Shown one piece after another: positions 6,119 to 6,523 of a stretch of 24,000 bases of DNA (within the stretch, counting starts at the first letter, position 1; every line of letters starts with the position of its first letter). The notes under the pieces are model-generated. The model searched no databases. It saw only the letters and a list, made by a program, of their open reading frames with translations, and was not told where the DNA came from. The DNA is taken from NCBI GenBank assembly GCA_964492305.1, contig CAZBJN010000002.1:279-24278 (forward strand). The letters run 5' to 3'. A program made the position numbers and the translations under genes. This DNA comes from an uncultured Candidatus Saccharibacteria bacterium (GTDB lineage Bacteria; Patescibacteriota; Minisyncoccia; Phycocordibacterales; UBA918).

Positions 6119-6127
6119 TGATATGCT
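6119..6127 (+). promoter_or_regulatory. Extended -10 element (TGaTATGCT) 6 nt upstream of the ruvX ATG; candidate leaderless promoter
   Basis: TG at 6119-6120, hexamer TATGCT at 6122-6127, then acggct, then ATG 6134. A possible -35 TTGTCG lies at 6098-6103 (18-nt spacer). Confidence 0.4.
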
Positions 6128-6133
6128 ACGGCT

Positions 6134-6523
6134 ATGTCCAGGTTACTAGGTATAGATTATGGTAAAAAGCGCGTCGGCGTGGCTATCTCAGATGAGTCAC
6201 ATCAGATGGCCTTTCCCCACACAGTGTTTCCAAATGACGCCCAGTTGGTCAAAAACCTCCTCTCCGTCATAGCTAAGGAAAACATTTCCGAAATTGTCAT
6301 TGGACACTCACTCGATAAAGAGGGGAATCCCAATAGTATTCATGCCAAGGTTGAAGAATTGATGATGGATTTGACGCTTGAAGTAGGGCTGCCAATTCAT
6401 CTCGTACCAGAACTGTATACCACCCAAGCGGCGCTCCGCATCCAGGGACGAAACGCTATGACTGATGCTGCTGCCGCGACTCTCATCCTCGATACCTTTA
6501 TCACAAACCCTAAGAAAAAATAA
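6134..6523 (+). CDS. ruvX: Holliday junction resolvase-like protein RuvX/YqgF
   Basis: The N-terminus MSRLLGIDYGKKRVGVAISDE is the typical YqgF motif. The length of 129 aa fits. Confidence 0.9.
   Translation: MSRLLGIDYGKKRVGVAISDESHQMAFPHTVFPNDAQLVKNLLSVIAKENISEIVIGHSLDKEGNPNSIHAKVEELMMDLTLEVGLPIHLVPELYTTQAALRIQGRNAMTDAAAATLILDTFITNPKKK

Follow-up and report, generated by a model that had tools for sequence, protein, structure and literature searches.

Extended -10 boxes adjoining ATG start codons point to leaderless-type transcription units in a Candidatus Kaiserbacteria genome

Leaderless genes of the TA-led type (Zheng et al. 2011, PMC3160421), which form group C of GeneMarkS-2 (Lomsadze et al. 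2018, PMC6028130), are experimentally established in Mycobacterium, Streptomyces and Deinococcus (PMC3160421, PMC6028130), with Mycobacterium tuberculosis and Streptomyces coelicolor (Actinobacteria) and Deinococcus deserti (Deinococcus-Thermus) as group C examples, and the mechanism is well known in other bacteria. For Parcubacteria, it has been reported that the anti-Shine-Dalgarno (anti-SD) motif is detected in just 48% of the genomes, that its loss overlaps with the loss of uL1, and that Shine-Dalgarno (SD) helices probably do not form (Tsurumaki et al. 2022, RNA 28:1041; PMC9297842). Here we analyse -10-like hexamers located a few nucleotides upstream of ATG start codons in a stretch of 24,000 nucleotides, in the following referred to as the window, which corresponds to C2:279-24278 of a 1.04 Mb genome bin comprising 102 contigs. 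A first-pass annotation, made from the letters of the window alone, had listed ten such genes and had proposed widespread leaderless mRNAs in an SD-poor genome. Based on the genome-wide sequence statistics, the boxes probably represent sigma-70-type extended -10 promoters that abut the ATG and give rise to leaderless or near-leaderless mRNAs.

The bin has a completeness of 96.7% and a contamination of 2.6%, and with a G+C content of 44.7% it is not the AT-rich genome for which it had been taken. The PilM protein encoded in the window is 93% identical to PilM of Candidatus Kaiserbacteria RIFCSPLOWO2_01_FULL_45_25 and 60-81% identical to PilM of other Parcubacteria/Paceibacteria bins, and on the basis of these identities the organism, a groundwater bacterium with a tiny genome, is placed in the candidate phyla radiation (CPR; Patescibacteria) as a member of Candidatus Kaiserbacteria. 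Genome-wide, 867 genes of at least 80 amino acids were called by a simple codon-usage model, each open reading frame (ORF) was initially given its first ATG, GTG or TTG as the start without any further selection, and the boundaries between first-in-unit and internal genes were derived from these ORF-based gene calls of our own.

At offset -12, the pattern TANNNT was found in 66 of the 443 first-in-unit genes (14.9%), compared to a mean of about 3.3% elsewhere upstream (binomial p=3.4e-24), so that the proposed hexamer is indeed more frequent at this position than at other offsets. The 66 sites of this peak, which were chosen on T, A and T alone, display a TAtaaT core, T at -15 in 53% and G at -14 in 47% of the cases, which corresponds to the consensus of an extended -10 element, and T at -1 in 61%. 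ATG is the start codon of 62 of these 66 genes, versus 312 of the 443 genes overall. A -10 model learned genome-wide, the refined form of which reads T-n-TGn-TAtAaT and allows any in-frame candidate start, matched no first-in-unit gene at a spacer of 5 nt, 58 at 6 nt, 32 at 7 nt, 23 at 8 nt and 36 at 9 nt, followed by eight genes at 10 nt and about five at each longer spacer. The spacers of 6-9 nt correspond to the distances at which RNA polymerase selects its start site. A match at spacer 6-9 is present in 148 of 461 first-in-unit genes; under a stricter threshold, 138 of the 461 genes remain versus 19.7 expected, an excess of 26% of the units, which is a lower bound since weaker boxes escape the model. 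No comparable box signal was found before GTG or TTG in the genome-wide model scan. At spacers of 6, 7, 8 and 9 nt, T occupies position -1 in 57, 50, 74 and 83% of the sites, respectively, followed by A at +1, and this suggests that transcription starts wherever the T-A step of the ATG lies and not at a constant distance from the box. Upstream of the boxes, no enriched -35 element was detected, and a scan for two-hexamer promoters yielded 28 hits versus 30.1 in shuffled sequences. A single complete sigma factor of group 1, comprising regions 1.1, 1.2, 2, 3 and 4, is encoded in the genome. Its gene, located on contig C28 (L157:540-620), carries itself a TATAGT-N9-ATG arrangement, so that a leaderless-type unit appears to supply the housekeeping sigma factor.

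In the window, all ten hexamer-spacer-ATG arrangements of the first-pass annotation are present, and seven of them are strong according to the model (7.7-12.0 bits), scores which random ATGs reach in at most 0.06% of the cases at one spacer. The gene names RuvX, PilM, acylphosphatase, ion channel, ABC ATPase, NUDIX, CitMHS-type transporter and ASCH agree with Pfam. On the forward strand, ruvX (6119..6136) is preceded by TGa and TATGCT (6122-6127) with a 6-nt spacer to ATG 6134 (9.0 bits), and its Pfam match begins at residue 3; pilM (6895..6909) carries TATACT (6895-6900), likewise 6 nt from ATG 6907 (8.2 bits); and acyP (10475..10493) carries TATACT (10478-10483) with a 7-nt spacer to ATG 10491 (12.0 bits). 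This ATG is preferred over GTG 10458 as the start of acyP, and the acylphosphatase match extends from residue 6 and reaches profile position 3. The ABC ATPase gene (16363..16381) shows TGg and TATTCT with a 7-nt spacer to ATG 16379 (9.9 bits), and the NUDIX gene (18527..18544) TGt and TATCAT with a 6-nt spacer to ATG 18542 (7.7 bits), a site which also appears in the consensus scan with TG. The two strong sites on the reverse strand belong to the ion-channel gene (13629..13646), with TGt and TACGAT 6 nt from ATG 13631 (9.3 bits), and to the ASCH gene (22935..22953), with TGc and TACACT 7 nt from ATG 22937 (11.3 bits). Here the boxes help to choose the start codon, as had been suggested: ATG 13631 is preferred over TTG 13637 and ATG 22937 over ATG 22964, and the ASCH match extends from residue 8 and reaches profile position 3.

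The remaining three sites are less clear. The transporter gene of the NhaD/CitMHS type (19059..19073, forward strand) is preceded by TAAAAT at 6 nt from ATG 19071 and reaches 3.7 bits, a box with moderate support that is weak by its score, and the hypothetical gene on the reverse strand (16265..16282), with TGa and TACTAA 6 nt from ATG 16267, is weak with a best score of 2.8 bits because its hexamer lacks the final T. For the HExxH peptidase gene on the forward strand, the previously assigned TATCAA-N6-ATG 14264 has to be given up, since the invariant final T is absent (-2.1 bits), and TATGAT (14263-14268) with a 7-nt spacer to ATG 14276 (14263..14278), four codons downstream of ATG 14264, scores 7.6 bits instead. 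An additional box, absent from the earlier list, precedes the gene of an extracytoplasmic function (ECF) sigma factor on the reverse strand (6025..6042), with TAGAGT and a 9-nt spacer to ATG 6027.

Several of these boxes are conserved in relatives. The arrangement TG(a/g)TATGCT-N6-ATG of ruvX is kept in four relatives (L001-L004) despite a diverged upstream flank and is similar in three more, and the pilM box with its 6-nt spacing is identical in the same four (79-93% protein identity), where the flank is diverged as well. In more distant pilM loci (L007-L010; 28-35% identity) the ATG is preceded by a -10-like hexamer at a distance of 7-9 nt, and the spacing amounts to 11-12 nt in two relatives. 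A systematic comparison with 400 kb of the same-genus genome G007 revealed that 32 of 35 orthologues of leaderless-type genes have an ATG at the aligned N-terminus, and that TANNNT at spacer 6-9 is kept in 18 of these 32, versus 3 in the offset control.

Regarding the genes within operons, SD-like tetramers occur 18 times in the SD window of internal genes versus 33 times in a control window, which bears out the description of the genome as SD-poor. Among 588 same-strand neighbour pairs, 185 have a start within -29 to +10 nt of the upstream stop codon, the mode of the spacing lies at +1 to +6 nt and ATGA overlaps number 15; this agrees with the previously noted reliance of internal genes on overlaps and short gaps and fits translational coupling. 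Alternative SD pairing with an altered 16S tail (AUUCC) was ruled out, since neither GGAA nor GGAAT is enriched upstream of starts.

Next to the promoter-like boxes, the 3' end of the 16S rRNA, to which the first-pass annotation had pointed as a check, bears on how the ribosome could find its start sites. No 16S gene was identified in the bin by Rfam. However, all seven same-genus 16S genes (7/7) end in GGAUUAAUUCCAAU where the bacterial consensus has GGAUCACCUCCUUU, so that CCUCC is lost, and one same-order 16S gene ends in GGAAUCAUUCAAUU, again without CCUCC. From these relatives we infer that the organism has lost its anti-SD, and it appears to belong to a subgroup of the Paceibacteria without the CCUCC tail, for which SD pairing would therefore be unavailable as a general initiation route. 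No CCUCC is present within 260 nt downstream of 16S in the genus, and a displacement of the anti-SD by an insertion was rejected, as a search of the 4 kb that follow helix 45 revealed no GATCACCTCC-like sequence in any of ten genomes. For uL1 (PF00687), no candidate was identified in the 96.7%-complete genome, and 14 of 14 control genomes gave a match.

One contig of the bin, C89 (L027:1-2455; 2,455 nt), does contain the 3'-terminal 53 nt of a 16S gene, including a canonical GGATCACCTCC tail. We rejected this tail as the organism's own: the EF-Tu-like ORF of C89 is 67-70% identical to the genus, whereas the copy on contig C58 reaches 87-90%, and the exact sequence of helix 45 and tail recurs in genomes of another class. 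On this sequence evidence C89 is a mis-binned foreign contig. In a survey of 150 genomes of the class, about 88 had a readable 16S 3' end, 27 of which were canonical; nearly all sampled Patescibacteria genomes outside the class retain CCUCC. Within the class Paceibacteria the tails are eroded in various ways, including A/U-rich, UUCUCC, CACUUCU, AAUUCC and other ends. In two Paceibacteria, at the loci L110 (G099:C1:117000-127000) and L112 (G096:C6:142000-151561), helix 45 of the 16S gene was located about 0.5-1 kb past the end of the Rfam alignment, which implies a putative insertion close to the 3' end of this gene; in L112, the interval before helix 45 contains a match to a group II intron domain (RF01998).

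For a comparison across genomes, 40-400 kb from each of 21 genomes were put through the same pipeline with the model trained on our own genome, and strong boxes at spacer 6-9 were recorded as their excess per first-in-unit gene. Direct counting of the pattern across genomes had been discarded in favour of the full pipeline, owing to its poor signal to noise (124 vs 74 in the calibration on the own genome). The excess amounts to 0.26 in the own genome and in the same-genus genome G007 alike, to 0.05-0.23 in seven other Paceibacteria with eroded tails, and to a mean of 0.156 over all nine eroded-tail genomes, own genome and G007 included. In thirteen Patescibacteria with canonical tails it ranges from -0.12 to 0.18 with a mean of 0.054. 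The difference between eroded and canonical tails (rank test p=0.005) is to be read only as a trend, because the genomes are mutually related and the model was trained on the own genome. As a control, strong SD use was detected by the pipeline in genomes such as G223 and G234.

According to the mechanism we propose, promoters with the consensus T-n-TGn-TA(t)A(a/c)T and without a detectable -35 box would let RNA polymerase start at the A of the ATG or within 1-2 bases of it. The resulting mRNAs would have neither a 5' leader nor a ribosome-binding site, and the ribosome together with the initiator tRNA would bind the 5'-terminal AUG directly; downstream operon genes, which are free of SD motifs and lie near the preceding stop codon, would probably be reached by termination-reinitiation coupling. 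We infer the positions of transcription start, the way in which ribosomes are recruited and the coupling from the bias towards first genes, the extended -10 element, the spacer of at least 6 nt, the restriction to ATG, the T(-1)/A(+1) step and the conservation in relatives, all of which support the leaderless interpretation of the first-pass annotation at the level of sequence. Leaderless-type starts are predicted for at least about 26-28% of the transcription units.

Several observations weigh against this interpretation. About 16% of the internal genes also have a box (spacer 6-10), which may reflect internal promoters or errors of the crude gene caller, and spacers of 8-9 nt in this genome and 10-11 nt in G007 permit leaders of 1-4 nt. 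The organism's own 16S gene was not assembled. AGGAG at canonical SD spacing precedes about 7% of the first-in-unit genes, and the translation machinery shows no obvious specialisation, as S1 with four domains, bS21 and IF3 are all encoded. Finally, two genomes with canonical tails, G248 (0.18) and G234 (0.15), show a clear box signal. From this we conclude that leaderless starts are not confined to lineages without an anti-SD and that the link between the boxes and anti-SD loss is loose.

The spacer distribution is also the ground on which a closely related explanation can be weighed, namely that the boxes are real promoters, but that transcription mostly begins some bases ahead of the ATG, yielding leaders of 1-5 nt and perhaps a differing mode of initiation. 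Spacers of 8-9 nt occur as often as that of 7 nt, and the spacer peak of G007 reaches 10-11 nt, as this explanation would have it. However, with the commonest spacer of 6 nt the canonical +1 coincides with the A of the start codon, and the T(-1)/A(+1) step is strongest at the longer spacers (74-83%), which indicates that the start site follows the ATG; moreover, leaders of up to 5 nt are generally grouped with leaderless mRNAs. We therefore regard such short leaders as the general case as rather improbable.

A further explanation dispenses with promoters and takes the TA-rich motif as an element of the mRNA, i.e. a non-SD enhancer bound by the ribosome or by S1, similar to the A/U-rich motif upstream of genes in Bacteroidota (GeneMarkS-2 group B). 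The four-domain S1, the lack of SD use, the A/T-rich regions upstream of internal genes and the boxes before some of these genes are compatible with it. A motif of the ribosome-binding type should, however, serve internal genes and GTG or TTG starts equally, which the TA-rich box does not, and the combination of an upstream TG with invariant bases at -12 (T), -11 (A) and -7 (T) is the recognition signature of sigma-70. In addition, the sharp cut-off below a spacer of 6 nt matches start-site selection, and the A/T-rich 5-mers before internal genes mostly include the upstream stop codon, so that we consider this explanation very unlikely. Even less credible is an artefactual origin of the pattern in base composition, in stop codons preceding the starts of longest ORFs or in a start choice guided by the box. 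It is true that stop codons and the T of ATG produce artefactual peaks at -6, -4 and -1 of the raw profile, and that some starts in the first-pass annotation were picked using the pattern; yet the peak at -12 persists with blindly taken first start codons, the count drops to about one fifth at control offsets in the same sequences, just 0.1-0.3% of random ATGs per spacer pass the threshold of the model, and N-termini were confirmed by orthologue alignments. Promoters abutting the ATG thus remain the preferred explanation of the boxes.

The genes with AGGAG motifs form a class of their own. About 31 first-in-unit genes have GGAG at -10/-11, compared to 0-4 (mostly up to 2) at other offsets, and never at this position before internal genes; GGAGG sites are clear in the genomes G099 and G038 too, whose 16S tails hold no trace of an anti-SD. 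We compared 60 genes of this class, loosely defined, with the leaderless class and found that 5% versus 39% have a homologue in the 400 kb of the same-genus genome, that the G+C content is 0.493 versus 0.442 and the median length 161 versus 226 amino acids, and that a terminator hairpin follows the gene in 63% versus 25% of the cases. Contamination was rejected as the source of these genes, since 51 of the 60 share contigs with leaderless-type genes.

Two representatives are located on the forward strand of the window, each with AGGAG 6 nt before the ATG, a strong extended -10 box further upstream (at 31 or 38 nt) and a strong terminator. The first orphan cassette (17932..18474) comprises TGaTATAAT with the -10 hexamer at 17935-17940, a leader of about 24 nt, AGGAG at 17961-17965, the gene 17972-18436 and a terminator hairpin at 18453-18474; the gene has a G+C content of 0.49, no Pfam match and four homologues among 5.8 billion proteins. 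The second (23013..23377) comprises TGcTATAGT with the -10 hexamer at 23016-23021, AGGAG at 23049-23053, the gene 23060-23332, which again has a G+C content of 0.49 and no Pfam match, and a terminator at 23357-23377. Of the claim that only three genes of the window have a clear SD sequence, the AGGAG motifs of 17972 and 23060 hold, but the SD genes are part of a distinct accessory class that extends over the genome rather than being isolated exceptions. This class would allow for two expression regimes in a lineage without an anti-SD, i.e. conserved core genes free of ribosome-binding sites next to GC-richer, fast-evolving orphan genes in cassettes with AGGAG, promoter and terminator, a possibility which we put forward tentatively and consider unlikely. 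In such a scheme, the core would consist of leaderless first genes and internal genes coupled by reinitiation, and its initiation may be fully independent of SD pairing; the SD of the cassettes would be unable to pair with the 16S tail of the organism itself, and the cassettes may be read by an unknown SD route or may be recent imports or mobile cargo destined for other ribosomes.

A different arrangement was observed for the PNPOx-family gene on the reverse strand (22523-22565, ATG 22525), where a strong CGCTATACT box lies 31 nt upstream and no SD-like motif is present. The mRNA of this gene would be leadered and without a recognisable ribosome-binding signal, and a third mode of start thus probably exists. 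Between positions 5400 and 24000 of the window, 35 hairpins resembling intrinsic terminators were counted versus 17.4 in shuffled sequences, i.e. about twice as many, with strong bidirectional ones at 20357-20383, 22046-22085 and 12890-12928.

For the annotation of CPR genomes, a -10 box at 6-9 nt offers a usable start-codon signal, which favours the starts 10491, 13631, 14276 and 22937 in the window, and it argues for the use of gene finders that are aware of leaderless genes on CPR bins. There are two traps: a mis-binned contig may provide a bin with a false canonical anti-SD, and SD-like motifs persist in accessory genes that the organism's own ribosome should not read by pairing.

Compared with the TA-led genes and group C, the boxes described here share the position of TANNNT, with its first T about 12 nt before the start codon and 6-8 nt between box and start, the association with first operon genes and a share of 20-50% of the transcription units; in the present genome, 32% of the first-in-unit genes and about 16% of the internal genes carry a box. 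In contrast to group C, whose remaining genes use SD sequences, internal genes are SD-free here and the 16S rRNA of the lineage lacks the anti-SD, and the box is a medium-GC TAtAaT with TG extension and without a -35 element. Neither Patescibacteria nor Paceibacteria are among the lineages named in PMC3160421 and PMC6028130, and our literature search found no paper in which leaderless mRNAs are connected with CPR, Patescibacteria, Parcubacteria or Saccharibacteria. The organism resembles the anti-SD-lacking Parcubacteria (PMC9297842) in that the same-genus 16S genes lack CCUCC and uL1 was not found, and the canonical tail in 27 of about 88 class members in our survey compares with the 48% detection reported for Parcubacteria. 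That study describes the loss in the rRNA and not how initiation proceeds, and a promoter placed at the ATG is a candidate answer to the question of how Parcubacteria without an anti-SD initiate translation, namely by transcribing from the start codon and coupling the rest. As in Bacteroidota (GeneMarkS-2 group B), SD sites are scarce genome-wide; however, Bacteroidota keep the anti-SD and have an A-rich motif before first and internal genes on leadered mRNAs, whereas the motif of the present genome is a -10 box that is specific for ATG and twice as frequent in first genes.

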